64,000 nucleotides of DNA from Rhizophagus irregularis (taxonomy: Eukaryota). The notes under the pieces were generated by a model. That model saw only the letters and a list, made by a program, of their open reading frames with translations, had not been told where the DNA came from and made no database searches. The stretch lies in NCBI RefSeq assembly GCF_026210795.1, contig NC_089431.1, forward strand, positions 682,001-746,000, given 5' to 3'. Shown here piece after piece: positions 32,291 through 56,732 of the stretch; the stretch's first letter is position 1, and every line of letters begins with the position of its first letter. Made by a program: the position numbers and the translations under genes.

Positions 32291-34612
32291 TTATTTTTCC
32301 AATAGCTTTTTGGCTTGTTTATATACTTTTTTCCAACTTTTATCATCATTTTTAATTTTAATTCTCTTATATTTCCCTTTATTCTCATAAATATTCTGAT
32401 GCTCTTTAAACATTTTCACCATATCCGTATATTCTTCTTCATTCAACGTTTCATATGATGTTTTATGTCCTTCATTACTTTTCTTAGTTTCTCTTCCAAT
32501 ATAGTTATTCCAACATTCTTTATTCTCTAAGAAAATTATTACTGCATTATCTATAATATCTTTATATTTAAATATCTCCTTCTCCATTTTATGGTTTCCA
32601 TATGGAGTAATATATTCTCTGTCGAAACTTTTGGTCTTTTGGTAAAAGTATTCACAATATGGTGACTTGTCCAATATTATAATGTCTTCATCTGTAAATC
32701 CAACCATTCTCTTATTAATTTCTTCCACGACTTGTTTCCTGAATAACCATTCATATTCTTTCGAAGGTTCCTCAAATCTCTTATCATCATTTCTTCTTCT
32801 TTTAAACTTATTAAATATTATTTTTAAATCATCCTTTTCTTTTAATCGCTTAATCATATTTTCTACTACGGTGGATTTCCCTACACCATCAACTCCATCA
32901 ACAATAATAATTTGTGGTTTATTCTTCCTTCCTAATTTCTTTAATAACTCTTTTTCTGTCTTTTCTTCTAAATCCAATAATATTGCTTCTTTATCATAAA
33001 AATATTTCACGTCGTCCCATTTTCCTTTAAATCTTCTAGCGTCAAACCATTCATTTCCTGATCTAACATATCTCAGCTTTTTCTCTTTATTATGCTCCAT
33101 TTTCATTATTTCTTGATCTAAGCCTTCAAGGTCCCTTTTTATAACTTTTTCTTCAAACTCTAATCTTGATAGCGCATCTGCATTCTTATTTTCTTTACCA
33201 CTTCTATGTATTACTTCAAAATCATACTGTTGTAACTCCATTACCCATCTTGCTCTTCTTCCTGTAGGTACTTTAGCATTCATTAATCCTTTTAACGCAG
33301 CATGATCTGTTATAACCGTAAATTTTCTTCCTGCTAAGAACTTATGGAAATACTTGATCCCCCAGAATATCGCTAAACATTCTAATTCTGTTATTGCATA
33401 ATTCTTTTCTGCTCCCACTAAACTTCTACTAGCATAAGCGATAACAAATTCTTTATTTTCTTCATTCTTCTGAGATAATACTGCTCCTAACCCTTCTCCT
33501 GATGCGTCTGTAATCAATATAAATTCCTTTTCAAAATTAGGGTGATCTAATACTGGTTTCTCCATTAATCTTATTTTTAATTCTTCAAATGCTTCCTGCT
33601 GTTTCTCTGTCCATTCAAATGGTACATCTTTTTTAACTAAGTGATATAAAGGCTTTGCTATTTTCGCAAAATTCTTTATAAATCTTCTATAATATGAGCA
33701 CAATCCTAAAAATGACCTCACTTGTGTAACAGTTTCTGGTATCTTTATTTCTTTAATCTTCTCCACTTTCTTTGCATCTGGTTTCAAACCATCTCTTCCA
33801 ACTATATGTCCTAAAAATTCTATATTTCGTTCACCAAACTTACATTTCTTTAACTTTGCAATCAGATTATTTTCTCTTAATTTATTTAACACTTTATCAA
33901 TATGTTCCACATGTTCTTCAAAATTTTTCGAATAAATCATTATATCATCTAAATATACTATTACGAATTCTCCAATATATTCTCTTAATATCTCGTCCAT
34001 TAATCTCTGAAATGTTCCTGGTGCATTCTTTAAACCAAATGGCATAACATTATATTCATATAATCCTTGTGAGCATATAAATGCTGTCTTTTCTTTATCT
34101 TCTTCTACCATTTCCACTTGATGATACCCTGCCGCTAGATCCAAACTCGTAAACCATCTTGCCGTTCTATATTTTTCTAATAATTCATCTATTCTTGGTA
34201 ATGGGTATGCATCTGACTTAGTTACATTATTCAATTTCCTATAATCAATGCAAAATCTATAATTTCCTGTTTTCTTTCCTGCTAGTGTTACTGGAGATGC
34301 CCATGGGCTCCATGATTTTCTAATTTTTCCCATTTTTAATAACTGTTCAATTTCTTTCTTTATAAACTTTCCTTTTTCTTCAGTCTCCTTATATCTCTTC
34401 TGTGCTATTGGTTCTTGACCTTCTTTAATTTCTATTTTATGTTTAACAGTGTTTACTTTTCCTAATTTTTCTTCATCATATTCAAATATCTCTTCATAAC
34501 TTTTGATTAGCTTTATTATACCATCCTTTCTTTTATCTGTTATTTCTCCCAAGTTTATCTTTTTATCGAACTTTTCCCATTTAGTTTCACTTTTATCATT
34601 TTCATTTATCAT
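32291..34612 (-). CDS. pol: Reverse transcriptase-RNase H fused to a C-terminal P-loop nucleoside/nucleotide kinase-like domain
   Basis: RFCIDYRKLN, MPFGLKNAP, YLDD, TDAS, ELE, TDH and NADALSR, followed by IIIVDGVDGVGKST (Walker A) and IIILDKSPYCEYFY. Confidence 0.93.
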   Translation of the reverse strand: MINENDKSETKWEKFDKKINLGEITDKRKDGIIKLIKSYEEIFEYDEEKLGKVNTVKHKIEIKEGQEPIAQKRYKETEEKGKFIKKEIEQLLKMGKIRKSWSPWASPVTLAGKKTGNYRFCIDYRKLNNVTKSDAYPLPRIDELLEKYRTARWFTSLDLAAGYHQVEMVEEDKEKTAFICSQGLYEYNVMPFGLKNAPGTFQRLMDEILREYIGEFVIVYLDDIMIYSKNFEEHVEHIDKVLNKLRENNLIAKLKKCKFGERNIEFLGHIVGRDGLKPDAKKVEKIKEIKIPETVTQVRSFLGLCSYYRRFIKNFAKIAKPLYHLVKKDVPFEWTEKQQEAFEELKIRLMEKPVLDHPNFEKEFILITDASGEGLGAVLSQKNEENKEFVIAYASRSLVGAEKNYAITELECLAIFWGIKYFHKFLAGRKFTVITDHAALKGLMNAKVPTGRRARWVMELQQYDFEVIHRSGKENKNADALSRLEFEEKVIKRDLEGLDQEIMKMEHNKEKKLRYVRSGNEWFDARRFKGKWDDVKYFYDKEAILLDLEEKTEKELLKKLGRKNKPQIIIVDGVDGVGKSTVVENMIKRLKEKDDLKIIFNKFKRRRNDDKRFEEPSKEYEWLFRKQVVEEINKRMVGFTDEDIIILDKSPYCEYFYQKTKSFDREYITPYGNHKMEKEIFKYKDIIDNAVIIFLENKECWNNYIGRETKKSNEGHKTSYETLNEEEYTDMVKMFKEHQNIYENKGKYKRIKIKNDDKSWKKVYKQAKKLLEK

Positions 34613-35336: not shown

Positions 35337-38300
35337 TCACTCTATTTTATCTCCTTTTCTTATCATTTTTTTTATCATTCTTCCTTGTTGTTCCACAATA
35401 TTAAGTAGGTTTTCATAATCTACTGGATCTTTTGATTTCACTCCTATAATTTTATCTTCTCTTGGTCTACGTTTTCCTCCTGCTTCTTTCCATCTATTTA
35501 TTCCTTCCATTGTGTCGTAATATTCTCCTCTCTTTTTACTCCATTTATATCTTTTTGGAATATTCGTATTATTTGGTCCTATTGGTCTATCGTACATTGG
35601 TTGTTCATCTCCCACATCTTCTTCCATTGGAACTTCTCTTCTATTTCTATATTTATATTCTTCTTTCCCTCTTTCCTCAATTTCTTTGTCTAAATTTGGC
35701 TTTCCAAAATTTTTCCATCCTTGTTTAGGATTTATTCTATTACTTCTTCTTCTTTCTTGTACTGGATTATCTTTTTCATACAAATCGCGATCATAATTAT
35801 ACAATTGTGAATTATTATATTCATTATTTTCATGGTCGTAATCATCATCTGATTCTTCATTTTCGTAGTCATAATCTTCTTCATATTCTTCTATATCCAT
35901 TAAATTAACTCTTCTCTCATTTCTTCTAATATTATTTCCTAATGGACATCTAGTCGCAAAATGACCTCTTCTATTACACCTAAAACAAGTTATTTCATCA
36001 TAATTAATCGGTGCTCTATTATTTCTTCTCTGGTTCCATTGGTCTCTATTCCCATTATTATTTAACTCTCTTTCCATATTTTGTACTTGTTTTTCTAGCT
36101 TGGCAATTCTCATTTTCTCAAATTTTTCCGCTAATTCATCTTCATAATTCTCGTTTAATGGTTTATTATGTCTGACATTTGTTCCAACATTTTGTTCTTC
36201 AACATATCCTTTTCCAATCTCCGGATAAACTCTATCTGGTATATTTCCTGCTTTTCTAAATAATTCATTTCTTGCTTCTTCTTCCCTTCTTGCTAAATTT
36301 ATTGCATCATTTAAATTTGCTGGGTTCTGTCTTCTAACTTGGTACCCTACTGTTGCTTCTAGTCCTTCAATATAAAAATCTACTTGATATTCGTCAGCTA
36401 ATGCATGACCTCTTGTCGCTAATCTTAATACTTGTCTAAATCTCCTCGTATAATCATCGACATTTTCATTTATTCCTTGTTTAGTTTTTCTCAATTCCAA
36501 CATTTTTCTTCTTCTAACATCTTCTCTGGTAAATCTTCTTTTAATTCTATGTTTTAAATCATTATCATTATCTGCATCTGCCCAATTCACTAAATGGCCC
36601 GCATTCGCTTCTCTCATTTCATGATACCATTGTGCTGCTGCTCCTCTTAAATGTGCTGCTGCGAATGTCGCTTGTCTTCCACCGTCAGGTCCTGCTGCTT
36701 TTCCAATTGCTGCGAATGCTACTTCAAATTGTCTAATCCAATCACTAACATCCTCTTCTTCTTTTCCATAAAATAATGGTATATTAATTATTCCTCCAGC
36801 TTCATTTCCTGCATTTTCAATCCTATCTATTAAGTGTGCTCCTACCCCTACTACTCCATCCAAAGTATTAGCTGGATATCCTAAAGCATTCTCCATTAAT
36901 CTTTTTATTTGAATTTCAGTCGCCATGTTCAACAATATATTCTCTTCACTTTCTGTATCAGAATTTTCAATATCAGAATCCTTAATATTTAATGAATTAT
37001 TCGAATCTGAATTTTGACTTAAGCCAAAACCTTCTGTATTTATAATATTTTCATTTTTACTCTCAAATTTATTCTCATTAAAACTTTCAGTATTTTCTTC
37101 CCAAATCTCATGTTCTTCTGGATCTAACATTTCTCCAATCTTTTCTGATTCATCTGTATTATCTTCCTCTGATTCTTCATTATCACTTTTTTCATCACTA
37201 TCCACTATTCCTACCTGTTCTTTTAACAACTTATCTAACTTTTTCTTCAGCTCTTTTTCTGACTCATTCTTATTTTCTTGAAAGATTTCGATAAATTCTT
37301 TATCTAAAATTTCTCCATCTGTATACCCCATACTAATCAATCTTAATAATTCTCCATCAGAAACTTCCATTTTCATAACTTTGATTAGATTTTTTAACTG
37401 TTCTAATCTTTTCTCTATTTCTGTTTCATCATCTAATTCATTCTCATCTTTTACATTTTCTTCTTCGTTGTTTTCCTCTGTCTCTATTTGTTCTTTTAAA
37501 TATTTATCTAATATTTCTTTTATGACTCCCTCCAATTCATTCTTATTTTCTTGGAATAACTTTATAAACTTCCAATTCAAGATTTCTCCATCTGTATAAC
37601 CCATATTTATCATTCGTAATATTTCTCCTTCTGTTACTCCAACTTCTACTCCTTCGCATACTTTCTGTATCTTCTTTGCTCTTAGTTCTGCTTCACTAAC
37701 ATCATTCTTCTCTTTCTCAGAACAACTTTTACATATTTCTCCTGTAAATTCTTTATCATATTTTACCGCTTCTTTCTTCAGTGTCATTTTGTTACATATC
37801 GGACATTCTATCGTATACATATAATGCCATATTCTTAACTCTTCTTTTATTCCTTTGTCGTCTAGTTCTTCAATGGTTTTGTAAAAACTCATAAACTCTT
37901 TAGTTTTTATTATTTCATATTCTACTCTAAAATTTATTATTCGTCTTATTTCTTCAATATCGATTTCATAATCATTCTCTAACCAATAATTTCTGTATAT
38001 TCTTTCTATATGTTCATCTCCTTCATTTGAACTTGATTCTCCCAAATCATCTGACATTTCTAGTTCTCCTGCATCACTTTGTTCTTCAACAAAACCTTTT
38101 GTTTCTACAATTTTCTCTATTATCTTATCTGTTAACTTATCGTTCATCCATGGTTTTGGGTATTTATTTCTATCCCACCATTGATATGTTATACTTTTCT
38201 GAAACTTCCTGATTTTCCCTCTATTTTCTTCTTCTACTATATTTTCCTCTAAATGCAATATTTCTTTGAAATATCTCATAGTACCGTATCCTTTGTTTTT

Positions 38301-38867
38301 AATAGTTATTGATTCCTTTTCTTCTAACCATCCTTCAAATTTTGCAAATCTTATATCCAGTTCGTCATCTTCTATAATATACTTATATGTTAACAATTCT
38401 CTATTTCCTAATAGATTCTCTTCTGCTCGATCGTCTAATATAAACTCATTATCTTCACTCAATATGTAATGTTCACAGATCACTTTCATCACTGATATAA
38501 TTCCTATTTTTCTGTAGTCCGGTTTATTTCTGTACCTTATTGATCTTATGACTACATCCAACAGTTTTTCTCCTTCTTTTCTCATTCTCTCTAATTCTTT
38601 ATTTCTTTTCTTTTTACTAGATGGATAACTTTCTTCCCCATCCTTTCTTGTTAGTCTTATGTACTCCATTAATTTTGTATGTGTATTCCTGTTATAACTC
38701 ATTGCTTCTAATATTACCTTTTGGAAAATCTTCCAAAACTTTTTAAACCAATCTTCTATCTCTATTCCGTCGGTACTATAACATTTTAGGCATGAAGGAT
38801 CTATTTGATACTCTTCTCTCGATTCATTATGTTTTTCTATTTCGTGTCTATTTTTAATCTCTTCCAA
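35337..38867 (-). CDS. gag: Gag polyprotein with an N-terminal extension of about 640 aa, capsid domain and CCHC zinc knuckle
   Basis: Capsid motifs (IPLFYG, LRGAAAQW, KQGINENVDDY, YIEGL) and CFRCNRRGHFATRC. The start codon is uncertain because the ORF opens at TTG. Confidence 0.88.
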   Translation of the reverse strand: MEEIKNRHEIEKHNESREEYQIDPSCLKCYSTDGIEIEDWFKKFWKIFQKVILEAMSYNRNTHTKLMEYIRLTRKDGEESYPSSKKKRNKELERMRKEGEKLLDVVIRSIRYRNKPDYRKIGIISVMKVICEHYILSEDNEFILDDRAEENLLGNRELLTYKYIIEDDELDIRFAKFEGWLEEKESITIKNKGYGTMRYFKEILHLEENIVEEENRGKIRKFQKSITYQWWDRNKYPKPWMNDKLTDKIIEKIVETKGFVEEQSDAGELEMSDDLGESSSNEGDEHIERIYRNYWLENDYEIDIEEIRRIINFRVEYEIIKTKEFMSFYKTIEELDDKGIKEELRIWHYMYTIECPICNKMTLKKEAVKYDKEFTGEICKSCSEKEKNDVSEAELRAKKIQKVCEGVEVGVTEGEILRMINMGYTDGEILNWKFIKLFQENKNELEGVIKEILDKYLKEQIETEENNEEENVKDENELDDETEIEKRLEQLKNLIKVMKMEVSDGELLRLISMGYTDGEILDKEFIEIFQENKNESEKELKKKLDKLLKEQVGIVDSDEKSDNEESEEDNTDESEKIGEMLDPEEHEIWEENTESFNENKFESKNENIINTEGFGLSQNSDSNNSLNIKDSDIENSDTESEENILLNMATEIQIKRLMENALGYPANTLDGVVGVGAHLIDRIENAGNEAGGIINIPLFYGKEEEDVSDWIRQFEVAFAAIGKAAGPDGGRQATFAAAHLRGAAAQWYHEMREANAGHLVNWADADNDNDLKHRIKRRFTREDVRRRKMLELRKTKQGINENVDDYTRRFRQVLRLATRGHALADEYQVDFYIEGLEATVGYQVRRQNPANLNDAINLARREEEARNELFRKAGNIPDRVYPEIGKGYVEEQNVGTNVRHNKPLNENYEDELAEKFEKMRIAKLEKQVQNMERELNNNGNRDQWNQRRNNRAPINYDEITCFRCNRRGHFATRCPLGNNIRRNERRVNLMDIEEYEEDYDYENEESDDDYDHENNEYNNSQLYNYDRDLYEKDNPVQERRRSNRINPKQGWKNFGKPNLDKEIEERGKEEYKYRNRREVPMEEDVGDEQPMYDRPIGPNNTNIPKRYKWSKKRGEYYDTMEGINRWKEAGGKRRPREDKIIGVKSKDPVDYENLLNIVEQQGRMIKKMIRKGDKIE

Positions 38868-41791: not shown

Positions 41792-44053
41792 CCATGCAGG
41801 CCCAGTATTATATATTGAATCAGCAATATGTAATAGATAATGGTAGGAAATGAGCGCTGCTGGAAGTTGTGCAGAATTATTCTGAATATATTCTCTATTA
41901 AATGTTAAATATATAATTTAATGTCAAAGTTACGGATAAATGGATATGAAAGCATACAGTACTTTTCATAATACGTGATAAATTCACAAAATAACCTTCT
42001 AATTTCTGTTAATTCTTCCATACTGATAATATGTTTAAGGCAAAGCTTTGTTGCATGTACGAATTTTGCCCATCCATTTAAATGCCTAAATAAATTTAGC
42101 AAAATCTATCTATTAAATAACATCAAAAAATAATGTGCTTTTATCACTTACAAATTAAAACATTACCTTTCTGGAAGATAGCTTTGTAAAAGTGGAAGTG
42201 AATATAATACCACCCAATTCATCCAGTCTTCTGCCTTAAATCCAGCTGAATGTTGCTGAATATTAATAGGTGGACGACCAAAATCAAATGGCATATTTTT
42301 TCGATTTTTTTCCATTGTTTTTCCTATTTCTGTCCAATCTTTATTAGGAATGATATAATTAGAATCAAAGTCTTGATCATCTTTGAAAAAAATGCCAGAC
42401 CAATGCCGAAGCATTGCTGGTGCAACATTTTCAAACAACCCATGCATAATATCAACAGGAAAAGATACAGGAAATCTAATTGAGTTTAATTCAAATAAGA
42501 TGCTGCGGCCATTTACCCCTGTAAATATAAACAAGTAAGAATTGTTTATATGAATTTGCTAAATGTATTTAAAATAAATGTACCTCGATCTTGTATTTTA
42601 CGTTTACGTGATGATCCAGATGCATTTTTTACAACAGTAACATCACGTATATAATCTTCATGTGTTCTCAGCGGAAGGTTTTCAGAATTATACTGACATC
42701 CTGACATATTCATTGGAGGTTTAAGTGGAAAATATACATGTCGATTTCCTTGACAATATATTCCACGAATAGAGCAAAATCGGCATGCTTTATATGAATT
42801 ATGTCCTGTTGTATACATTACTTTGGAAAGTGCTGGGATATCACCAGAAATACTTAAAATGTGTGCATGGAGTGTAAAGGTATTTTCTGTTAAACCATCA
42901 ATACATTGAATACCTTCTGTATTGTTATTATGAAATAAAAATTAATATATTATATTAAATACATTATAATAAAAATAAGTATGCAAAACCTTGCAACTGC
43001 TTTAATTCATCGATTAGTGGCTGTAGAAAAGAGTTAAAGTTTTTTGGTGCTTTTGGTCCTGGAATAAGTGCAGAAACCATTAAATTTTCTCGCTTAACAC
43101 GTATATTAGGTGGTAAGTTTGCATTTATAAAGAGTATAACCCAACAATCATCTCTTTTTTGACGAAAAATTTGATATCCATCAATTGATGCCATTAGAGC
43201 TATATCCCGACAGTCTGAAAAGAAACCAGATGTGGCTAAAGTTTTGTATTGAAGGCCATCAAATACATCACCTATCTGATTACCAAGAGTATATTCATAA
43301 GTAGAAGTATAATTATATCTGTAACGAAGAATTTCTGCACGAGTTTTATCTTTATATTGGGTCTGAAATGAATCAATAAGTGACCAATAAGCAGCTTTTT
43401 TTCGAGATATTTGAGATTCTTCATCAACTTTATAACGTGGCTCTTTACATTCTGGACAAATATTTTTGTTAATAAGCTCGCCTGTGAACGCCACACATGA
43501 ATTTATACAACAATCTACAAGAGTTGGTTTTAATAACATAAAATTTCCAAGAAACTTTCGAAGTTTGTAAAGTGTAATTCCAGGAATTTCAAAAACTTTA
43601 AGAATTTCGTTAAATGCAGCTTCTGAAATATTGTGTTTATCTTTAATTTGAAGAAGCTGTAAACCTTTAATTAAGTTTTCTGAATAATTATTAGAATTTA
43701 TGCAAAATTTAAAATAAATTCATAATGTTTATTTACTGTAGCCTACCAAAATCTTCACATTCAATATTTTCATTTCCTTCCCTATTATTATTATATTCTT
43801 CATCTTCATCTTCATTTTCGCCATTATTGTATTCATCAGTTTCACTATCATAAATGTGTTCTTCTTCAATATTATTATCATTCTCTTCTTCACTATCCAC
43901 TATTTCAATCTGCTGATCATTTATATTATTCTCTTCATTGCTATAATCTTGATCTTCTAGAATATTATTATTAGGTGATAATGTCATTGGAATAGTTTGA
44001 GAAATAGAAGTAGCTAGGCATCGCTGAGTAGTATGAAAATGCCGGTTCTGGCT
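41792..44053 (-). pseudogene. CACTA Tnp2-family transposase, 5' exons
   Basis: DCCINSCVAF..CPECKEPRY, ASIDGYQIF, NANLPPNIR, IPGPKAPKNFNSFLQPLIDEL, SGDIPALSK..GHNSYKACRFC, PVDIMHGLFEN, GFKAEDW and YHYLLHIADSIYNTGPAW, separated by short introns. Confidence 0.88.
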
Positions 44054-44250
44054 CACCTACTTATCTCATAATCTAACCGTTTATTAATATTTTCACCTAC
44101 TTATATGCTACATATTTTATAACCTAAATCACCTTTTTTTATATTTTTACCTACTTATATCCTACTTATCTCATAATCTAAACCGTTTATTAATATTTTC
44201 ACCTACTTATTTCATAATCTAAATCATTTATTAATATTTTCACCTACTTA
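44054..44250. repeat. About five degenerate 40-bp tandem repeats at the left end of the Polinton-like element
   Basis: CACCTACTTAT(C/T)TCATAATCTAA..GTTTATTAATATTTT recurs near 44054, 44094, 44150-44161, 44200 and 44241. Confidence 0.85.
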
Positions 44251-44431
44251 CCCCCAACCGAACAAGAAATAGGATTTCAAAGCCAACGGAGCCAAAAAAG
44301 GTAAGGAAATATTAACCCATCCAGGAAACCAGCCATAGGGTCAATAGAGCGGAATAGCAAGGCAAGCAATTACCCTTATACCGAGAAAAAATGTAATTGA
44401 ATAAAAGGTTCACATATAAAAGACTTACAAG

Positions 44432-45115
44432 ATGTCACAATACAGACCATCACTAAGACGTATACTAGGTCAGTTTGAACTCAACATAGAAGAATGGGTA
44501 AAGGAAATAATGTGGTATTTAGATATAGCATATTTAAAAGCTTTAGATTCCGAATTTAGCAAAGAAAGTATGTTAGTATCTGGATTAGAAGAGCTAGTAG
44601 AAATATTTGATGAGATGTTAGAAGGTGATGATATATGGATACATCCATCACTTTTATCACGAATAAGATATTCTATTCTACCAGATGAGATGGCAATATA
44701 TGAAAGATTTTCAGATATCATTAAGAACTTCTCAGAGGATAAAGAATTAGCATATGCATTATTAGATTTAATAGAAATATTATCAAAAAAGAAACCTACA
44801 ACATTCAACATTATAGATTACAATATACAAAGAATATTCACGAATCCTAATGATGAATATAGAAATGAATTCAGCATCTACCATATTAAAGGAGATGAAG
44901 ATATGGACGAAGACACAGATGAAGACACAGATGAAGATATAGATGAAGTAGAGCAGAATGAATTCAATGAATACTATCAGAATCTTGCACCGACCACTGA
45001 GAGTCAGCTGGATAGACTAAAAAATGAGTTGGCTATAACTCTATGTGACGAATGTCTTATACCAACAAGAAGCCAGGAATGTGATTGCTGGATTTTACAA
45101 ATAGAGGGTTTCTAG
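44432..45115 (+). CDS. Hypothetical acidic protein (227 aa) with a C-terminal Cys cluster
   Basis: Intact intronless ORF with a DEDTDED tract and CDEC...ECDC. No family recognised. Confidence 0.65.
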   Translation: MSQYRPSLRRILGQFELNIEEWVKEIMWYLDIAYLKALDSEFSKESMLVSGLEELVEIFDEMLEGDDIWIHPSLLSRIRYSILPDEMAIYERFSDIIKNFSEDKELAYALLDLIEILSKKKPTTFNIIDYNIQRIFTNPNDEYRNEFSIYHIKGDEDMDEDTDEDTDEDIDEVEQNEFNEYYQNLAPTTESQLDRLKNELAITLCDECLIPTRSQECDCWILQIEGF

Positions 45116-45134
45116 TTCCCAGTGAAACCATTTT

Positions 45135-45926
45135 TTACCTCTCACAATCTGGAATAGGTACATCACAAATAAAAACCCCAAAATCATTCGGATTAGAAAA
45201 CAACTTCTGTAAGAACTTATAAATCATATCAGCAGCCAATTCAGTCTTAGTGCCAAATATATTAACCTTACCAGATTTAGGCCAGATGTGTACCCGAATT
45301 TTTGATGTGAAGACTATAACAATTTTAGAATGAATATCACCTGCATCATTCTTAATATACTTTATCGGAAAGGGGAGAATCTCACGAATACCATCTACAG
45401 ATTCTAAAGCATATGCTAAGGTAGAAAGATGAATAAACTTATTACTTCCGATATTAATCACAAATTTGTAATTACACAGGAGAGCCTTATTTCCACCTAC
45501 AAGTTCTACAGAAGAAAACTCAGGTAGGGAACATTCAGAAAGGTAACGTAAGAAGATAGCAACAGGATCAAAAGACCCGAAAACTTGTATACTACCAGAT
45601 CTAGGAAAATAACGAATGGTATGTACAGAATCAGCTAAAATGATAACAAACTCAATGCAAGCATTAAAAGTGCTACCATCCCCTGTACGTCACCGTCTAT
45701 TTAATGGATTGTCAGGTGTACTTCTTCTGCATCGTCTCTCACCTTTTGGTTTAGACAAGTACTGTTCATAACCCTCAAAAGCTTTATGAATAAAGTTGCT
45801 ATTAATGGCAATAACATCCTTAGTAGGTTCAAGCTTATGACCAAGCACGGTGTAATCAAGCCCTTCAACATTGATCTTAAATTCAGTAACAGTAAGAGAT
45901 GGAGTAAGTTCACTAAAAGTAAGCAT
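45135..45926 (-). pseudogene. Viral TATA-binding-protein-like gene (asfarvirus B263R-like), one in-frame TGA
   Basis: ORFs 45690-45926 and 45135-45461 are one frame: IAINSNF.H..EGYE...RR*RTGDGSTFNACIEF...RYFPRSGSIQVFG...CNYKFVIN...PFPIKYIK...IWPKSGKVNIFG...IYKFL...DVPIPD. The two-fold F/W-P-x-SG-x-I/V-x-x-FG repeat is TBP-like. Total length is 263 codons plus stop. Confidence 0.8.
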
Positions 45927-46030
45927 GTCTGGTTTTTTCTATTGATAGAAAAGAAATGTTCAAATTATTTTATCCTAAGAAAAAATCTAATTAAATAAAA
46001 CTTCTTCATCAATATCTCATATGAGATACC

Positions 46031-46543
46031 ATGACAAACAATAGCTTACCTTTCGAACTTTTAGAAAAGATATTCAAAACTTCATATGAAGGTACTTACT
46101 CCCGTTGGTATTGTCTTTGCAATTATGCATTAGTGTGTCGAAAATGGGCTGTAGTAGCAAACTCTCTCCTATGGGGTGAAACAGACCTTTATAACCGCTA
46201 TAATATTAAGGAGTTCCAAATGTACAAACATCTCACAAAACCAGGGACAGTATGTGGAAAATATATCAGAAAGCTTAATATGGATGAGGTAAAATTATGG
46301 CCCATTTGTATTGTAAAAATGCTACAAGCTTGTCCCAATATCCAGGAACTTAGCATAATAGATTATCAATACTATGGTGGAAAAGGTGACGTTAGAGATT
46401 TGCTAAGTGAAATTCTGCATATATTACCAAACCTTCGAATGATAGATATCAGATATAGTCGATATTTTAAAAATAAAAATGCCATTGAAAAACTCATAGA
46501 AACCCGTAAAGACCTAGAAATCAGAGTAACATGGCAAATGTAA
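46031..46543 (+). CDS. F-box protein with short LRR-like repeats
   Basis: SLPFELLEKIF...ALVCRKWAVVANSLLW (F-box), LQACPNIQELSI and LPNLRMIDI. Intronless. Confidence 0.82.
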   Translation: MTNNSLPFELLEKIFKTSYEGTYSRWYCLCNYALVCRKWAVVANSLLWGETDLYNRYNIKEFQMYKHLTKPGTVCGKYIRKLNMDEVKLWPICIVKMLQACPNIQELSIIDYQYYGGKGDVRDLLSEILHILPNLRMIDIRYSRYFKNKNAIEKLIETRKDLEIRVTWQM

Positions 46544-46559
46544 TATTTGTAAAGGCTAA

Positions 46560-46700
46560 TCACTGCCAAAAAATTTGGGCACTGCCCTGTTACTGCCCGT
46601 CACTGCCGAAAAAATTTGGGCACTATTCTGTTACTGCCCGTCACTGCTGAAAAAATTTGGGCACTGCCCTGTCACTGCCCACCACTGCCCATCATCGCTG
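46560..46700. repeat. Three 41-bp tandem repeats between the convergent F-box and Gag-protease genes
   Basis: CACTGCC(G)AAAAAATTTGGGCACTGCCCTGTTACTGCCCGT repeated three times. Confidence 0.85.
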
Positions 46701-46790
46701 CAGAAGTTTGGGAAACACATGGATTTTTCCTAGCAAGATGACGCTTTAACTTAGAGGGAAAGTCAAAACTTGCTCCACATAGATGACAGG

Positions 46791-49700
46791 TTAATCTTCC
46801 TCGAGAGTGTGAATTTTTTTTAAGTCGATAGTATCCATCTGCAAGGAAGTCACGTTAGTTTTCCGTTTATGTAGAGAAATTGGAATGGTAATTTTTTTAC
46901 GTGATGATAGAGGGATGGTCAGTTGCCGATTTTGGAAATCTAGAATGACATTAGCACGATCAATCCAAGGTACACCTAGCAATAAAAAGTCCTTATCACT
47001 CTTAACAACCATGAAGTCATCTTCAATTTTTTTAGAGTTCTCCCCATCATATACAAGAATACCAAGACCATATACTGTCCCAATAGTATCAGATTTTGTC
47101 GCAACACCACTAAGGTTAGGAGCATTACTTCTATCAACATCAAGATTTAGGCGCTTTACAATATTGTTAGATATCAGAGAACTATCAGAACCAGTATCGA
47201 AAATTGTCGTAGGAATAACTAAAGATTTTTCACTCTCAGGTGCGACTACTTTGGTCTTAATAGTGACTACATCACTAGCAGACTTGCGGTTAACAATTCC
47301 AATACCTGCTATAGAAGACCATAAGTCATTATTACATATAACATCATCATTTTTACGGATTAAATTTGCAGCCATACTATTAGTTACAACCGAAATCATA
47401 GGATGAAGGATAGATGTGAAAAGGTCCTTAACATTATCCCAAACTTTTTCACGTGTTTTTATTGAGGGTTCTCCTTTAAGCTGACTGAGTACTGGTTCTT
47501 TATAATTAATGAATTCAGCATTCAGAGCATTGTAAGCAGATATAACAGTCTCTTTTGGTACAGCATTAACGAAGGATTGAACCAGAAGCTTGAAGAGTTG
47601 TATAAAAACCTCAAAGATAATACGCTGCCTTTCAAGTTGTGATTTTTTCTTATCAGTAGGCTTTTTATCTATACGTTTCCTTTCTGTAGGCTTTTTTTTT
47701 AATCCATAGCAGGCATGTCCAGAGTCTGAATCACTATCAGAGGAGTCAGAGGAGTCAGAGGCGTCAGAAGAGTTAGAGGAATCAGAGGAGTCATGTGCAT
47801 AATTTGTTTTCCTCTTTCCCTTCTTAGATTTTGGACAGGAACTCTTAGTATGACCAGATTTTCCACAACTTGAGCATTTCTTTGATTTCTTTGGTTTGCG
47901 TGTACCTGAACTTATACCAAATACCTGATTACCACGGTAAATATGATCAGATGGTAAATTTTTATTAAGTTCTGTATCAATAAATATTTCAAGATCACTA
48001 AGGGTTACTTTACTTATATCGATATCTCTTGGAAGACCTAATTTATATGCTAAAGCAAGTAATCTCTGAAATGATGTATCATTTTGAGGACTTGAAAATG
48101 GACTAGAAGATGGTACTGGTACTGCAGATGATCTAGCTGTAGTCATAGGAATTTTAGAATTTATAAGATTCTCAATATCCGCTAAAGTTGGACCCTGATA
48201 TGTAACTATAGGAGTAGGTGGCATATCTGTCCTGTATTTTTCAACTTCTTCCAATTTATTCAGAATAGATGCAACTGAATTTTCTAAACCAATACGTCGC
48301 GCATCCAACTTATTTTCACTGGAAAGACCATTTAAGAACTGTTGCCATACTAATTCATTCTGATTTACCTCTGGAAGAGTTGGATATGCAAGTCTAACCA
48401 TTCTTCGTAATTTAGAATAGAATCGGCTTACAGTATCACTACCCTGAACAATAGCATTAAATGCAAGCTTAGACTTTTCAGATGTTACAGTAGGGAAGTA
48501 ATGCTTAAAACGATATATTAATTGTCCAATGCGTATTCCAGGAGCCACAATTGTACCTCCATTATTAGCATTAGGATTATTAACAGCTATATCAGTAGGA
48601 CGACCCTCGACTATTGACCAATCTTCATCCCATACAGTATGATCAGGTATAAAACTAGCACCAGTAATAGTATTAACTGCAGCTGCTTGTCCATGTAATA
48701 CACCAGCCCCTCCACGAAATTGATTCGCCGCTACAGCCTGTATAGCGGCATTATTCAAAGCATTAAAAGCAGCAAGATTGGCCACACCAGTATTATCCAG
48801 AAGATTTACACATTCCCAATTTTTTCCTTTGATATGTGTTTCATACCAATCTCTAGCATCATCTTCAAGTAAAGTTTCAAAGATCCCATGAATCCTAACA
48901 CGAGTCCTAGCATTAGCAGCAGGATCAAGTCCAGCAGACTCACACCATTGCCTGAATTCTTGAAGCCAAAGTTCTGGATCTTCACCAGATGCTCCTCTAA
49001 ATTTTTTAGGTGCATATCCTGCCATTATAGGTTGTTGTATTACCGGAGGGTTATTTTGTAATGCTAGAATCTGTTGATTCAAATTATTGACCTGATTTTG
49101 CAAATTTTGGCCATGATTGCGACAGTTTAAAAATTGCCCTCTCCATGCTCGAGCTTGCTGAATGATACCATTAGCCCGCCTTCTACTTCGCTCTGTTTCA
49201 GTATTATAGCGCTGTAATAATCTATGAGCATTTCTTCTACTCTCATCACGTTCTCTCTGGACATTAGCTAGTTGGATTTGACTGTTAGCAAATTGAGCCT
49301 GGATGTTAGCCAATTGGATCTGAGTATTTTGTGTAAGGGCTTCCCAATGTTGGCGATGACGCACTTCATTTGCATATGCATCCTCATAAGTACGTCTTGT
49401 TCTCAGTATAGTAGCACGTGTATTATTAAGTTCTTGTCTAAGATATTCTTCACGGTTATGTGCATCATCTAACAAACCTTCAAGTCTATCCTCCATATTA
49501 TCTTGATCTTCTATAATATTTCGCAACTCATTAGCATATCGGATAATGGCATCAAGACTATCATTTGCAGTGTTAAATAAATGATTTATATGAGGGTTTG
49601 CTGCAATAGTTGTACGATCAAGGTGAATACGAATACCAGCTACACTATTTGCTATAGTTGTCCGATTATTTAAGATTTCTGTAATAGGGTCAGGAGGAAT

Positions 49701-50012
49701 TGCTGCCATGTTTTTCCGTTGTCTATTAGCAAGTTCTTTTATTCGATCTTTAAGTTGAATATTTAGAGTATCAACTTCAATCAGCTGACGTTCTAATGCT
49801 TGAAGCCCTTCCTCCTTTAGTGATGCCGTTTCTAATGCTTTCTTAAGCTTTGCACGCAACTCAGCATTTTTTTGCCTAAGTTCTTCTATCTCGGATTCAT
49901 GACCCTCGATTACACCATACAGGTATTTTATATATTGCTCTTGTGATTGCAATGTATGTGCAAGCTTTGTAATCTGTGTCTTTAACGATGTATCTTCCAT
50001 TGCCAGTTCCAC
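46791..50012 (-). CDS. Gag-like polyprotein: coiled coil, Ty3/Gypsy-type capsid, CCHC knuckle and retropepsin; no RT
   Basis: PKKFRGASGEDPELWLQEF...LLEDDARDWY, IVQGSDTVSRFYSKL...QFLNGL, CSSCGKSGHTKSSC and IFDTGSDSSLIS...LLLGVPWI. Intact 1073-aa ORF with the first ATG at 50000. Confidence 0.88.
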   Translation of the reverse strand: MELAMEDTSLKTQITKLAHTLQSQEQYIKYLYGVIEGHESEIEELRQKNAELRAKLKKALETASLKEEGLQALERQLIEVDTLNIQLKDRIKELANRQRKNMAAIPPDPITEILNNRTTIANSVAGIRIHLDRTTIAANPHINHLFNTANDSLDAIIRYANELRNIIEDQDNMEDRLEGLLDDAHNREEYLRQELNNTRATILRTRRTYEDAYANEVRHRQHWEALTQNTQIQLANIQAQFANSQIQLANVQRERDESRRNAHRLLQRYNTETERSRRRANGIIQQARAWRGQFLNCRNHGQNLQNQVNNLNQQILALQNNPPVIQQPIMAGYAPKKFRGASGEDPELWLQEFRQWCESAGLDPAANARTRVRIHGIFETLLEDDARDWYETHIKGKNWECVNLLDNTGVANLAAFNALNNAAIQAVAANQFRGGAGVLHGQAAAVNTITGASFIPDHTVWDEDWSIVEGRPTDIAVNNPNANNGGTIVAPGIRIGQLIYRFKHYFPTVTSEKSKLAFNAIVQGSDTVSRFYSKLRRMVRLAYPTLPEVNQNELVWQQFLNGLSSENKLDARRIGLENSVASILNKLEEVEKYRTDMPPTPIVTYQGPTLADIENLINSKIPMTTARSSAVPVPSSSPFSSPQNDTSFQRLLALAYKLGLPRDIDISKVTLSDLEIFIDTELNKNLPSDHIYRGNQVFGISSGTRKPKKSKKCSSCGKSGHTKSSCPKSKKGKRKTNYAHDSSDSSNSSDASDSSDSSDSDSDSGHACYGLKKKPTERKRIDKKPTDKKKSQLERQRIIFEVFIQLFKLLVQSFVNAVPKETVISAYNALNAEFINYKEPVLSQLKGEPSIKTREKVWDNVKDLFTSILHPMISVVTNSMAANLIRKNDDVICNNDLWSSIAGIGIVNRKSASDVVTIKTKVVAPESEKSLVIPTTIFDTGSDSSLISNNIVKRLNLDVDRSNAPNLSGVATKSDTIGTVYGLGILVYDGENSKKIEDDFMVVKSDKDFLLLGVPWIDRANVILDFQNRQLTIPLSSRKKITIPISLHKRKTNVTSLQMDTIDLKKIHTLEED

Positions 50013-51046
50013 AGATTTTTATAGACCCTACATTTAATAAACAAATCGAACAAAATTATATCCTTCAACAAATCTATTACCATCCATGTGGATATTATCG
50101 TATTCCTGAAAAACTTTGGGCTAAAGTGCAAGCTGAGGGCCATGATTTTAACATATCTGATATTACAGAGTGGTTGCATAAACAGGCTATATGGCAAATA
50201 CACTCACCTGTACCCAAGTATGTTCCACAGGTTTCTTTTAATAAGATCACACGACCAAATATGTATCATCAAGCGGATATCTTATATATGCCCTATGATA
50301 CTGTAGATAGAAAGCTGTATAAATACTGTTTGAATATTGTAGATGTTGCCAGCCGATATAAAGCTTCAGTACCTCTAGAAGATCGCAGCTCTGCACGTGT
50401 TGCTAAGGCATTTAAAAAGATTTATAGTAAAGCAGACTGCCCGCTTATTTGGCCAAGAGTTTTACAAGTAGATGGGGGATCAGAATTTAAGGATGAAGTT
50501 ATCCGATTAATGGATGAAAAAGGTGTACGTATTCGGGTGGGTACTACTCATAAGAGTCAGGCTATTGTTGAACGGTATAATCGAACTTTAGCAGAAAGGC
50601 TATTTAAAATACAGGATGCAAAAGAACTCCTTACAGAAGGTGTGAATACTGCCTGGGTTAAGAACCTTCCTGATATTGTGAATGAGTTAAACAATTCTAA
50701 TACTCGATTGCTGGGTATGTCTCCAGTTGAGGCAATCCAGAAAGATCAAGTGTATGCACTACCTTCAAAGATTCAGAATGATAGACCTGTAGGTGCAGAA
50801 GAAATACGTTTACCGGCAGATTCTCTTGTGAGATACTTACTTGATAGCTCAGATTACCGAGGTAGGAGACGTGCAACTGATCCAATATGGTCTACTAAAG
50901 TTTATACAATTGAATCTTCCACAGTTGTTGATGGGCAGCCGGTTATATATAGGTTATCTGATGAACCTAAAAAAATATTTACTCGAGAAGAATTATTAGT
51001 TGTGCCATCTGATACTATGCTGCCTCCTACTCATATATTATATTAA
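49988..51046 (+). CDS. rve-family DDE integrase of the Polinton/adintovirus type
   Basis: QIYYHPCGY, HQADILYM, NIVDVASRY, LQVDGGSEF, QAIVERYNRTL and RRRATDPIWS. No HHCC or GPY motif as in the Gypsy integrase. Confidence 0.88.
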   Translation: MYLPLPVPQIFIDPTFNKQIEQNYILQQIYYHPCGYYRIPEKLWAKVQAEGHDFNISDITEWLHKQAIWQIHSPVPKYVPQVSFNKITRPNMYHQADILYMPYDTVDRKLYKYCLNIVDVASRYKASVPLEDRSSARVAKAFKKIYSKADCPLIWPRVLQVDGGSEFKDEVIRLMDEKGVRIRVGTTHKSQAIVERYNRTLAERLFKIQDAKELLTEGVNTAWVKNLPDIVNELNNSNTRLLGMSPVEAIQKDQVYALPSKIQNDRPVGAEEIRLPADSLVRYLLDSSDYRGRRRATDPIWSTKVYTIESSTVVDGQPVIYRLSDEPKKIFTREELLVVPSDTMLPPTHILY

Positions 51047-53502
51047 TTTTCAAGTTGTGGTATCCTATAGTCACCATGTGCATACATTGTGATATTATCT
51101 TGTGCAATCCATTTTTTATCATCCATAGGAGATAACCCAACCTTCGACATTTCTATAACATTTATGGCATGTCTGTCAGATCGGATTGCTCTAAAGGTAA
51201 CTGTATCATTATGTTTAGGATCGAAGAGTGCCTTATTATACCGCTCGTGGTGGAATTCTTTTTTAACTACCTTTGAGGGAACACCCTTAGCCTTACGGAT
51301 ACCATGTTTTGGATTAGTAGTTTCATCTCCTACCTTAAGAATGGAATACATTTTGGGACGAAGGCCAATAAATTCTGCTATAACTGCTCCATTACATTCA
51401 TCCTTAAATTTTCCTGGGATTTTCATGTTTATGTCAGCCTTGTCACCTAATGCTTCTCGTACAGGGTGATCCTTAGGATAATCACTAAAGTCGAATTGGT
51501 CTGCCATATCTATAAGGTCTGCATTAATATCCTCAGTTTGGATTTGTACGAGGAGTGAGTCTGTGTCTGTATAACATAACTGGATTTTTTCACCATAACG
51601 TACCTTAAGAGTATCATAGTAGAATTGATACATACAGAGCTTTGAGAGGTCAAGTACACTCATACCCACATATGTTGGACGGTTAAGCATTACCTCCACT
51701 TTTCGTCGGTGGATTGCAACAAGATTTTCTGAGAATATTTTACGACCTTTGAATGCAGGATCTGAGGTAAGCTTTTTATATTTCTTGGGATGGGTTTGGG
51801 GTTGTACTACTGAGACACGTACACGTTTCCTGAGATTTTCCATAGTTTTACCAAATACACTATTATTCATGAGTTTATAGAAGTCCTTCTCAAAATCGTT
51901 TTTAGCCTTAGCACGTTCGGCGGTGTTAAATTCTATGTATGGTTTCATCCATGGAGCCTGCTCGAATTTTATAGCTTCATAGACCTTCTTGATTACTAAG
52001 CCTTGGCTAACATAATACTGGAGATTTCTGTAATGAACTACATATTCATCCTTATCGAATAGGTTGGGAATGAGCTTATCCGTGGGTGTGTATCGTTGTC
52101 CTGAGCGTGCTATTATTTCCTGCTGCTTTTTACTAAGCCATTCCTTCTTAACCTTCATTCGTTCTGGTGCAAGGGGGTAATCTGTATGTTGTGAATGAAG
52201 AGCTTGGGGGTACTCCAGTTTGACTTTGAGAATATATCCCTCAGAAGAATCGTCTGGTATTTCGTTATTTTCTATTTGCCTTTGAATGTTAGATAACTCG
52301 TTCTCCTCCTTTACCCAGTGAAAGTTACCTGTAGGTAAGTATTGCAACATGGCCCATCCATATAGGTTATTTGCATCTAAGTATAGGATAGATAACTTGG
52401 GCTTTTCTGCGGTCCATTTACCTTCTCCCATATCTGGGTTATTTGCACGAGCATATCGTTTACTTACCATAGAGATTCCACCACGTAATCCTTGTTCTAC
52501 CATCATGTACATATCCTGGTCAGTTATAAGATCCAATCTTCGCCCTGTCATGAAGAATAGTGCATCCCATGCAAAGCCTGGTGTTGAATAATACCAGAGA
52601 GGATCTAACCCATATTTTTTCAAGGCCATTTCTCGGAAATTCTGAAATATATCGGCTAGTAGAAGGACGTCAGTTTTGAGATAAATGTCATGATAATCTT
52701 GCATTGTTTTACATCCTGCTTTTTCCCATACATACTGTGCATATTCGTATTCTTTATCACTAATGTGGGTTTCATTAAGTTTGCTATAGAATGCTCCTTT
52801 AAGTGGTAAACTAGTTTTCTCGAACTTTTTCCAGTCATCCATATATTCATACGGGTAGACACCTTTCTTAAGATAAATCTCGAGTAATTCAGGTGGTATT
52901 TGACTTCGTGTTATCTTAAAGTTTTCGGGATGTGCAAAGCATCTACCTGCATCAATTCGCCATAAGTGTTGTGGATTACTACATTCTTGTGCTCTACATT
53001 TTTCTGCGCCTAGGTTGGATGCTAATTTGTCGAGACTTGATTTCATGAATTGTAGGCTGTCTATAAATCAGAGGGAACCTAACTTGAATGCCATATACTT
53101 TTCCATGTTATAAGGGATAGGATCAATATCATCCTCACATTCCATTGCACCAATTCCTTGCATAATTATGTGTCCATCATATCCTGATAAATTGTGAAAG
53201 ATTACTGGGATATGCATTTCACGAGGTTTTATGGATAAGTCAAGATTACATCTTCTATGTGCTGCACCTCGATACCTTCCTGTAATATGGCAGTGGTCTC
53301 TTACTTTATTTCCATCTAAGGGGTTGCGACATATCCAGCAGTTTATTGCATTATCATAACTTACTTGCTCTTGGGTTGTTAATGGCATCATTTCCATTGG
53401 GTTTCTGAATTCATTACGGATTGCTTCAGCCTCATTTAGCATTTCGATTACAAATTTCTGTGCTGCATTTTCTCCTGTAAATATCTTCTGTGATTCACTT
53501 AC
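51043..53502 (-). pseudogene. polB: Family B DNA polymerase of the Polinton (protein-primed) type, 5'-truncated, one in-frame TGA
   Basis: CWIC..KVRDHCHITGRYRGAAH..CN, FHNLSGYDGH, L*FIDSLQFM (TGA at 53070-53068), KGVYPYEY, YLKTDVLLL, YLDANNLYGWAM, KLMNNSVFGK, YTDTDS and KAKGV. Confidence 0.92.
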
Positions 53503-54310
53503 CACACGTCAAATAAGTAAAAATCAGTCAAATATCGGACTGCCGATTTTTGGCTGTATTTGTCCGATTCATGGCTTTATTCAGCCGATTTTATGGCGTG
53601 AATTGCTAAAAATAGAAATTCCTCTTTTTAATGACAAAAAATAGGAATGCCGCATTTTAAACCATCATGCCGATTCAAACAATAATCGGACTGCCGATTT
53701 GTAAATAAATTTACAAAATATCATCACAATCAGACTGCCGGCATGAAAATAAACATGCTGATTCATAACATATAGAAGTGCCGATTTTTAAATCAGAACA
53801 ACAAACATTTTATATTACCTGCCGATTCTTCAATAATCTTCCAAATCGGACTGCCTATTGTACCGATTCGTATAATAATTTTTCAAAAAATAAGTGCCGA
53901 TTTATAAATTGGCACAACAGACTTATACTACCATGCAGATTCATGCAGTAATCATCCAAAATCGTACTGCAATAATCATGCCATTCTCACAAATAGAAAT
54001 GCCGATATATAGATCAGTAAGAACAATACTTAAAATAACATATGCCTGTTTTTATTTCGATCACAAATAGTTTTGAAAAGGAATGCCGATTCATAGATCG
54101 GTAAGAGCAATACTTAAAATAACATATGCCTGTTTTTATTTCGATCACAAATAGTTTTGAATAGAAATGCCGATTCATAGATCAGTAAGAACAATACTTA
54201 AAATAACATATGCCTGTTTTTATTTCGATCACAAATAGTTTTGAATAGAAATGCCGATTCATAGATCAGTAAGAGCAATACTTAAAATAATCTATGCCTG
54301 TTTTTATTTC
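53503..54310. mobile_element. Terminus and subterminal repeats of a CACTA/CMC-like element inserted in polB
   Basis: Starts CACACGTCAAAT exactly where polB homology stops. Many short (C)TGCCGATT repeats, then four 85-bp tandem units at about 53990-54310. Confidence 0.75.
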
Positions 54311-54539
54311 GAGTAAGCCAGAATCTTTCTATTTTTGATTTTTTCGTAATTCATCATTACCCGTTTTTTTCTATTATTGACCGATTTTATTTTATATGAA
54401 CACATTGTAATATACGTTTTTTTATTTTGCAGTTTATGATATATTTATTATTATATTCTTGCTATATTTATTATTACTATGTGCTATAATCATCTTACTA
54501 TTTTCTTTCACTTTTTAAAAGAGAACGTTTTTTAGTAGT

Positions 54540-56732
54540 TGATCTCCTAATAATTTCTTTTGGAACCACTAGTCGAAATGGATCATCCTTTTCATCGCTG
54601 TCATCGATAAAAATATAATCATTATTATCGGTTTTCTTATTGTCATCATTCTTATCGTCATCATTCTTATCGTTATTATCATCGTTAACGTTATTGTCGT
54701 TTTTATCGTTACTAGCATTGTTTTTATCTTTGTCGTTATTGTCGTCATTGTTATCGTCATTGTTATCGTCGTTACTATTATCCTCTTCATCACCATCTTT
54801 GTCGGATTCTTGTGCAACCCAGCTTGACGAAATCCACCAACTGGGAATGTTCTCCTTTGGTTTGCTTTTTTTGTCAAAATTTTCATCTGAGCGGTAACGT
54901 GGACGACTTAAACCAGATCCGATGCTAATACCAATTTCTTCCGATCGATGTAGAATTTTTTGAATCTAATAAAAATTTATAATTTATTAAGCATAAATGT
55001 TATATTCATTAATAACATCACGACTTCGCATACTCCCGACGACCGCCACTTCTTGTCGTAAATCTTTATTACTGAATTATTGTTAATTAATCGACCTGAT
55101 CTTGTATTTTTACTGCGTTCTTTGTTTGCTAATTCCTCGTCTTCTGTGGACCATTCGTCCGAGTGTATGTCTGAAGTATTAGTCGCCTTTATACAATCTT
55201 TGATAAATTCTTCCCATTTTAAGTTACGATGTTGGCATTCAGTCAAAAGTTTGTCTCGTGTCGATATCATGTGCTGCAATCCTCTTCTGCGCCGGGACAT
55301 CTTCTATTGAAGAGTAAATTAAAAAATTAATTAATTGTATATGTTTTTATTATTAAATAATGAATTTTATACCTGATCCCTTCTGGATATCATGTGTTGT
55401 CTTTTGGTATGTTCCGGCATTTTACCCTCTTTTTTGCAGTTTCCAAATCTCTCGGCGAGATTTATGCAATTGTTTTATGATTCTTACTATCTCTATATCA
55501 TATGCTACAATAGAAGGATTCATGGCCGATTTTACTGCTGGCAAAAGTTTTCTTTCTATTGTTTTTTTTGTTCACTGTACGTCTTTGATAGGTCGAATTG
55601 AAGCGACTGATTAAGATTATTGAGAATATGGACTACTTCATCCTATTTAATAAAACAGTCATTAAATGATCAAATATTTAATTTAATAAAGATAAATTTT
55701 AATAAAAATGTATATTTACGTGAAGTGTCTTCTTATAATTACTTGACATGAGTGGCAGCTCACGTTTCTGTTCTCTAATAAGAATAGGCGATAAGCTTCT
55801 ATTGGGACGATTAACTAAAGGTTCTTCATGACTAGCATTTTTTTCGGTTAGGTTATTTAAGCGTTGTGTGAGATTTAAGATTACATTTCTTAATTCTTGA
55901 ATTTCTTGGTTTTCAACGCCACCTATTATAAGTCAGTATTTAATATAATTCATTTTGAAAATTTTTTTTTTACATGTAAGTCAGAATAGGAGCGTGAGGG
56001 AAATAATACCGCTATTTAGAGCCGGAGTAATTGAAGAGGAAGGTTGATTTTGCAATATCGAAGATTGATTTGTAAGTGTTCCTATAATAATTATGTTAAA
56101 TCGGTATATGTTTTGAAATGTAATTAAAACTAATTTAAATAATATTACTTTTTGTTAATGATCTCCCTCTATTTTGTGGTGATGAATCTTTGGATGAGAG
56201 AGTGGTAAATTGATCATTAGAATCAGATACTTCATAATAGGATCGATGATGGTTAGAACTGTGGGATCTAGATTGTGATTTATGTGATCGATGATGTTGA
56301 CGTGAACGGATAGGGGAACTAGAATGGGATGGAGAGATATGTTGTTGTCGTAATCGGTGACTACGAGATTGGGAACGACTATGACTACGACTACGAGATT
56401 GGGAACGACTACGACTACGAGATTGGGAATAACTACGACTACGAGATTGGGAATGACTACGACTACGAGGTTGGGAACGATAATGGGAACGACGTGAATG
56501 AGAACGACGATGTGAACGACGTGAGTGAGAACGACGTGAGTGGGATCGTTGATGAGAACGACGTGAGTGAGAACGACGATGGGAACGACGTGAATGGGAT
56601 CGTTGATGAGAACGACGTGAGTGAGAACGACGATGGGAACAACGTGAATGGGATCGTTGATGAGAACGATGTGAGTGAAGAACGGGAATCTGATTCTTTT
56701 TGTTGAGATCTAGTATTGAGGTTCCTATGCAT
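54540..56732 (-). pseudogene. Multi-exon transposon accessory gene: Ser/Arg/His-rich N-terminus, conserved core, Asp/Asn-rich tail; frameshifted
   Basis: Core MNPSIVAYDIEIVRIIKQLHKSRREIW...QHMISRRDQ and GLQHMI...SDIHSDEWS.EDE is paralogous to 62225-64000. SHSRR and SRSQSR repeats at about 56340-56690. Confidence 0.65.

Follow-up and report, generated by a model that had tools for sequence, protein, structure and literature searches.

A B263R-family TATA-binding protein gene kept under selection in a Polinton-like element of Rhizophagus irregularis, perhaps a satellite of an asfarvirus-like giant virus

The window analyzed here is a stretch of 64,000 nucleotides from Rhizophagus irregularis (contig NC_089431.1, positions 682,001 to 746,000), and positions below are counted from its first letter. 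At 44256..53502 it holds the surviving 9.25-kb piece of a mobile element, with loose contig ends at 44256 in three of four runs and at 53502 in all four. Within this piece lies a TATA-binding protein (TBP)-like gene of the B263R family (45135..45926, minus strand), whose frame spans 263 codons; a single premature TGA, at codon 79, makes it a pseudogene here. Convergent with it is ORF227 (44432..45115, plus strand), encoding a 227-aa cargo protein of no known family, which had no Pfam or Atlas match and is conserved at 36–49% in three related elements. Divergent from the TBP-like gene is an F-box-like cargo gene (46031..46543, plus strand; PF12937, E 1.5e-6). Three 41-bp tandem repeats of family D10 (46568..46690) separate its 3' end from the converging 3' end of the gag-like gene.

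The gag-like gene (46791..50000, minus strand) encodes 1069 aa with a coiled coil, a capsid-like domain, a CCHC knuckle and an aspartyl protease, an assignment that draws on Pfam matches below cut-off. Its capsid-like model was of low confidence (pLDDT 57); the top structural rows were mostly retro-capsids, with Z up to 7.3, and a Foldseek search with the model gave nothing at E<=0.001. It is followed by an rve (retroviral-type) integrase (49988..51046, plus strand; PF00665, E 3.1e-9) and a family-B DNA polymerase (PolB; 51043..53502, minus strand), which is interrupted by a stop near 53068 and truncated at 53502. We take the polymerase to be of the Polinton/adintovirus type, its motifs having been read from the translation; it had no Pfam PolB or PDB match, contains an EndoVII-like segment (PF02945, E 8e-5), and is 81% identical to the polymerase of a related locus, L008. 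The pair of Polinton/Maverick PolB and rve integrase is thus present both here and in L008. Neither this truncated piece nor L008 contained a jelly-roll capsid or packaging ATPase, the Gag-like gene being found instead. The virophage (Lavidaviridae) major capsid, ATPase and cysteine protease were likewise absent from the surviving, truncated piece, and the element pieces examined contained no RNA polymerase or TFIIB gene.

Other copies extend past 44256 and 53502, and this copy is therefore a remnant, lying between other transposons. Its continuations were not found elsewhere in the window; both element ends are lost in this copy, and no terminal inverted repeats were present in 39000–64000. 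The left neighbor encodes a Tnp2 (CACTA-type) transposase (PF02992), and the right neighbor appears to be a transposon of the same type. Both flanks (42163–44255 and 53503–63254) carry subterminal repeats, with Tnp2 transposases at 42964–43539 and 58798–61143. We also considered an episomal form, as contig depth over the element versus the left flank was 780 versus 8.45 in run X3 and about 200 versus 27.5 in run X11. We do not claim an episome, because the right-hand transposon is also deep and depth is not copy number.

The preliminary description had read two separately called ORFs as one 263-codon frame broken by a single TGA, and translation through the stop confirmed this. With X at the stop, 45135–45926 (minus strand) gave 263 residues and X79 as the sole internal stop. 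The six motifs named earlier were all present, in the order given: GDGSTFNACIE (82–92), FPRSGSIQVFG (107–117), NYKFVIN (152–158), PFPIKYIK (185–192), GKVNIFG (219–225) and PIPD (257–260). A search of 5.8 billion proteins returned 69 relatives, the best of which (P0002, a cluster of 56) is an intact 263-aa R. irregularis protein, 94% identical over its full length. The frame is not due to chance; this copy is dead and other copies are intact.

The premature TGA (45690..45692, minus strand) stands where intact copies have Arg. It looks private to this copy, since the contigs of other runs have G at 45692: all four DNA-type runs and three of four RNA-type runs, the fourth having no cover of the site. 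The stop may have arisen when the C of a CpG became T, as would be expected from decay of a methylated cytosine. Read-through of the TGA under an alternative code was ruled out by the Arg of intact copies and the G of the other runs. P0003, a gene model of 232 aa from which the stop region is missing, is probably an annotation artefact.

In other copies the gene is both maintained and linked to the same neighbors. The dN/dS ratio was 0.07–0.42 in each of 45 pairs, whose synonymous sites are partly saturated, and at the level of sequence this showed that the TBP gene is under purifying selection in the element. Another element gene accompanied it at 28 of 36 loci (gag/protease at 13, integrase at 2, PolB at 1); many of these loci are near-copies, and the gag link comes from about six lineages including the window. 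L008 keeps the whole gene order, PolB and integrase included, at 55% TBP identity. Four short loci (L021, L024, L030 and L033) had no element neighbor, and three others (L018, L019 and L022) start too near the gene but overlap gag-bearing loci. These comparisons showed the TBP-like gene to be a conserved cargo of a Polinton-like element, bearing out the earlier statement that a mobile element carries it.

The surrounding cargo varies among relatives. A more distant lineage (L018, L019, L022, L012, L015, L016 and L027; TBP identity 43–47%) has, in place of ORF227, a 120-aa ORF, an ankyrin-repeat gene, several F-box-like ORFs and others, with an AT-rich box and TATATA-like upstream motifs before most ORFs. 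All organism-named close homologues of the TBP-like and Gag-like proteins belong to R. irregularis, and the divergent ones come from metagenomes.

The product had been described as a divergent TBP, and its predicted structure bears this out. An AlphaFold2 model built from 49 relatives (pLDDT 89.8, pTM 0.79) has two lobes in which a strand-helix pattern is repeated. In a Foldseek search of the PDB, ranks 1–43 fell at E<=0.001 (best E 3.5e-7), and among the matches listed all were TBP or TBP-containing chains. VIA gave Z 13.7, 13.6 and 13.4 to archaeal, yeast and human TBP over 173–178 residues (rmsd 3.0 over 178 residues for Sulfolobus TBP, at Z 13.7), with the first non-TBP row at Z 7.6. The protein is thus confidently predicted to adopt the two-repeat TBP saddle fold and to belong to the TBP superfamily. 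At the profile level, a wide family profile of 108 rows (A2) reached archaeal TBP at E 1.5e-8; the single protein and the profile A1 found no useful match in the PDB, nor did the protein in Pfam PF00352 (E<=1).

Identity to cellular TBPs was 12–18% in structural alignments, and because of this the protein, judged by its sequence, is not the fungal nuclear TBP. F87 and N152 are invariant in a 17-row alignment; these and similar residues are, we presume, DNA-facing. Position 215 is Trp where TBPs, B263R among them, have Phe, and the TG that ends each last strand in cellular TBPs is FG in the element protein.

The nearest named relatives are viral. In a Foldseek search of BFVD, the best named match, at rank 2, was the B263R homologue of abalone asfa-like virus (E 2.7e-17, TM 0.76); ranks 1, 3 and 4 are unnamed, and named TBPs of mimivirus type were weaker (E >= 1.5e-10). 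The family profile collected 511 representatives, including P0116 at E 1.7e-22, whose cluster contains the same abalone homologue (BBO54027.1). The element protein resembles B263R in predicted fold, length (263 versus 262 aa) and family motifs, with 28% pairwise identity to the abalone homologue over 254 aa, and motifs common to the B263R-like rows were missing from three PF00352 outgroup rows. It is unlike B263R in the Trp at 215 and in lacking about 8 residues after the QxPG motif, a segment that B263R-like rows keep and element TBPs have lost stepwise; it also belongs to a small integrating element, and this copy has a stop. Scans of IMG/VR with the TBP alignment, the integrase, PolB and the abalone homologue gave no matches, nor did tblastn against phages.

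One of the 36 metagenome loci, L036, is a virus. It is a 46.9-kb soil metagenome contig of 58% GC, asfarvirus-like, of which 15.9 kb was examined; its capsid is best matched by African swine fever virus (ASFV) p72 (E 1.6e-160). Its TBP homologue lies on the plus strand between minus-strand genes, as B263R does in the ASFV order B646L...B407L-B175L-B263R-B66L-G1340L (supplement of PMC7163114); in this comparison the capsid and the homologue were identified by search, and the other neighbors by position, size and strand. The contig also encodes a VLTF2-like protein.

Together, the best named structural and profile matches and the homologue in an ASFV-type B263R slot upheld the B263R-like label given in the preliminary description, and showed, as far as sequence and model can, kinship to the asfarvirus B263R family rather than to fungal TBP. 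That description had also set out what would speak against it, namely no TBP fold, grouping with fungal TBP, or no linkage to polB/integrase; we found none of these.

A further claim, that the element took the gene from a giant virus, goes beyond the B263R kinship, and a quick tree points to no particular donor lineage or direction of transfer. In this tree, which comprises 102 of 122 rows after removal of 20 that were redundant or partial (few rows are named and several branches are long), the element proteins formed one clade (97*) on an open fork among B263R-like proteins, nested neither with the abalone virus nor with L036. Such a deep, unresolved branch would also be expected if the B263R family was already present in small Polinton-like ancestors and the element gene is a sister of the giant-virus gene. 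We think shared ancestry of this kind improbable: the long members of the family, probably from giant viruses, show far greater diversity (the 511 representatives), the gene occupies a fixed slot in ASFV-like gene order, and TBP as a regular Polinton gene was not found in the literature passages available.

The preliminary description had proposed scanning element promoters for asfarvirus-like motifs, and the scan revealed an early-type TTGAA box before TBP and other cargo genes. In the window, ATTTGAA occurs at 45959..45965 (minus strand), with TTGAA at -37 from the TBP start, and TTGAA occurs at 44397..44401 (plus strand), at -35 from the ORF227 start; the box of the F-box gene is missing in this copy and present in L002, L004 and L008. 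The usual forms are ATTTGAA or AATTGAA, often with TATA about 13–15 nt later and then a short leader. TTGAA lay at -45..-20 before 10 of 12 TBP lineages (shuffle mean 1.92) and 9 of 20 other cargo genes (shuffle mean 0.86), with 0 of 2000 shuffles as high in either case; the motif, a core of 5 AT-rich letters, was picked by eye and then tested on largely the same promoters, and the orthologous promoters are non-independent. By comparison, it preceded none of four gag/integrase genes, and 4 of 35 ORFs and 6.9% of 2060 ATGs that do not belong to an element, a background in which host promoters are hardly sampled. The reverse complement preceded 1 of 12 TBP and 1 of 20 other cargo genes. In cargo promoters of L018, L019, L022 and L024, a box was seen by eye in 4 of 12.

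The asfarvirus-like orthologue shares this feature. Upstream of it, L036 has ATTTGAAC, with TTGAA at -33 from the second ATG, in a contig of 58% GC. The same contig has AAAATTGA about 35 nt before an extra ORF at 7386. In sequence, the box resembles the giant-virus early promoter core and the UCS of yeast virus-like elements, ATNTGA, which stands 20–40 nt before the start codon (PMC6211774). The ASFV early motif lies about 10 nt before the start and is related to poxvirus and yeast virus-like-element promoters; ASFV initiators are TANA or TATA, and B263R is an early gene (PMC7163114). The TBP upstream region recurs, as a second copy, before a truncated protease fragment at L027:47-153 and L035:18-124, and therefore the promoter was duplicated by rearrangement.

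Transcripts give a partial view of how the element is read. Cover of the element in the RNA-type runs X15–X18 was short or doubtful. Run X16, RNA-type by guess, had three GT..AG joints, one GC..AG and one CT..AC joint across gag/integrase at depth 3–13. These intron-like joints fall within 49620–50373, and one GT..AG joint (49919–50004, plus strand) bridges the start annotated for the integrase, to whose mRNA an upstream segment may be spliced. Because of the intron-like joints over gag/integrase, transcription and splicing of chromosomal copies by the host nucleus is probable, and the joints speak against a life spent wholly in the cytoplasm.

Such host-type splicing would suit an autonomous nuclear element, in which an old asfarvirus-like TBP now serves as a private initiation factor with the fungal RNA polymerase and the TTGAA box is either bound by that TBP or left over from its origin. 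Three points agree with that explanation: the substrate of an rve integrase is DNA in the nucleus, the R. irregularis transposons that have recently expanded and are partly unmethylated include Mavericks (PMC8647823), and the one long giant-virus integrant is restricted to one of five strains (PMC10640383). It accounts less well for a box that stands at the same distance upstream of the viral orthologue and recurs before unrelated cargo genes, and for a protein with so little identity to cellular TBPs and with FG for the strand-end TG. On balance we consider an autonomous element unlikely, while giving it real weight.

The alternative is that a B263R-family TBP is kept under selection in a Polinton-like element that is a satellite of an asfarvirus-like giant virus, a reading we hold to be evenly poised between right and wrong. 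Asfarviridae-related endogenous DNA in Rhizophagus, mentioned in the preliminary description, is documented (PMC10640383, PMC7017919): a 1.5-Mb asfarvirus-related integrant occurs in one of five R. irregularis strains (strain 4401) and 15–33 polB copies per genome (PMC10640383), and asfarvirus-related polymerases were found only in R. irregularis (PMC7017919). In the passages available of these two papers, an asfarvirus-like virus of mycorrhizal fungi is represented by integrated remains only, none having been isolated. The satellite reading is supported by two known systems in which dependence on a helper is marked by a comparable early motif. PgVV, a Polinton-like virus that depends on a helper, carries the early motif of that helper (bioRxiv 2022.07.28.501842), and pacmanvirus and its transpoviron have the early motif AAAATTGA and the late motif TATATA (PMC11788076). 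The virophage-like way of life suggested earlier for the element, a likeness in how it would work rather than membership of Lavidaviridae, thus finds a counterpart in a box that resembles giant-virus early promoters; element and helper have never been seen together, and we put helper dependence at about an even chance.

In the satellite scheme, the TBP gene with its promoter would have been acquired from an asfarvirus-like virus in a shared host cell. The early transcription factor and RNA polymerase of an infecting virus would then read the TTGAA boxes and switch on the cargo genes, that is, TBP, F-box, ORF227 and ankyrin-type genes. The element TBP, if it works as modeled, could join or displace the helper's TBP/TFIIB late machinery and steer post-replicative transcription toward gag/protease and integrase, the genes that lack the box; the helper would probably be slowed. 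B263R, with TFIIB, has been proposed to act on late ASFV promoters (PMC7163114). In full, the scheme makes the element an integrating DNA satellite that is packaged by Gag and belongs to an asfarvirus-like virus infecting mycorrhizal fungi; it would lie silent in the chromosome until woken by the early machinery, and its stolen TBP would take over late transcription. We put this forward tentatively, with somewhat more doubt than belief.

The same early-type box before TBP would also serve a decoy. In that case the virus early machinery would induce a dominant-negative TBP that blocks late transcription without driving element genes, and the fungus together with its resident element copies would be protected. 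The stepwise loss of the post-QxPG segment, which B263R-like rows keep, and the F-box and ankyrin genes among the companion cargo are consistent with such a defense. F87, Q114, N152, G219 and G225, presumed to face the DNA, are conserved, which is what a working factor would show and a competitor might show as well, and we regard a decoy as distinctly unlikely.

The satellite reading can be set against the closest known systems. PgVV (Gezel-14T) and virophages are alike in being small integrating elements with the helper's early promoter core before some genes; they differ in having jelly-roll capsids, Imitervirales helpers and, in the passages available, no TBP noted, whereas the present element has a Gag-like gene and a putative helper. 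The pacmanvirus transpoviron pltv (PMC11788076) is likewise a selfish element of an asfarvirus relative with the early and late motifs given above. It is, unlike the present element, an episome of the 7-kb class with a helicase and, in the passages available, no PolB, integrase, Gag or TBP described; association with a virus is shown for pltv only. The pGKL yeast virus-like elements (PMC6211774) are also fungal and have a poxvirus-early-related ATNTGA at 20–40 nt before the start, but they are unintegrated and come with genes for an RNA polymerase, a helicase and a capping enzyme of their own, whereas the present element has an integrase.

Polintons of R. irregularis were already known (PMC11296320, bioRxiv 2026.06.19.733378, PMC8647823). 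In Starrett et al. 2021 (PMC8502044), the Fig. 5 legend has the entries ‘TBP’ and ‘Matrix/Capsid/NC/Pro’ and the text names a Rhizophagus PolB; P0239, which is intact and falls in the P0002 cluster, is recorded under the protein accession DAC81703.1, from a MELD-related element of that work. The TBP and Gag of the element were thus probably already labeled in that figure, in which, going by the legend and text, one drawn element would carry the TBP, Gag and PolB labels. In the preprint, which contains the string ‘asfar’ 0 times, the legend describes TBP and F-box as ‘homologs of host proteins’. In contrast to the present work, the passages available of that account held no analysis of the TBP or promoters. 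Passages of PMC13533422, PMC5751038 and PMC11071296 had nothing on TBP. In the titles and passages covered, neither the asfarvirus kinship of the element TBP nor the promoter box was found, and these two points appear to be new here; figures and supplements may bear on them.

A multi-copy element has kept an asfarvirus-type TBP and an early-type box under selection across lineages 44–70% apart, and therefore long, repeated co-infection is implied. If the satellite reading is true, the element would be a virophage-like parasite with a general transcription factor of its own and a lasting sign that giant viruses actively infect Glomeromycota. Its induction or amplification could then report such infection, a cheap handle on these viruses. 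Transfer from giant virus to Polinton would be a further path of gene flow, taken here by a general transcription factor, and the element protein offers a compact B263R homologue from a non-pathogen for study of how a divergent TBP works.

Elsewhere in the window, two genes of a Ty3/Gypsy retrotransposon lie on the minus strand. The first (32291–34612) encodes a reverse transcriptase-RNase H with a C-terminal P-loop domain, an unusual fusion for an LTR retrotransposon; this domain gave weak, below-cut-off matches to AAA and thymidylate-kinase families (E about 1e-3). The second (35337–38702) encodes its Gag, in which a long acidic stretch of about 640 aa extends the N-terminus ahead of the capsid domain.
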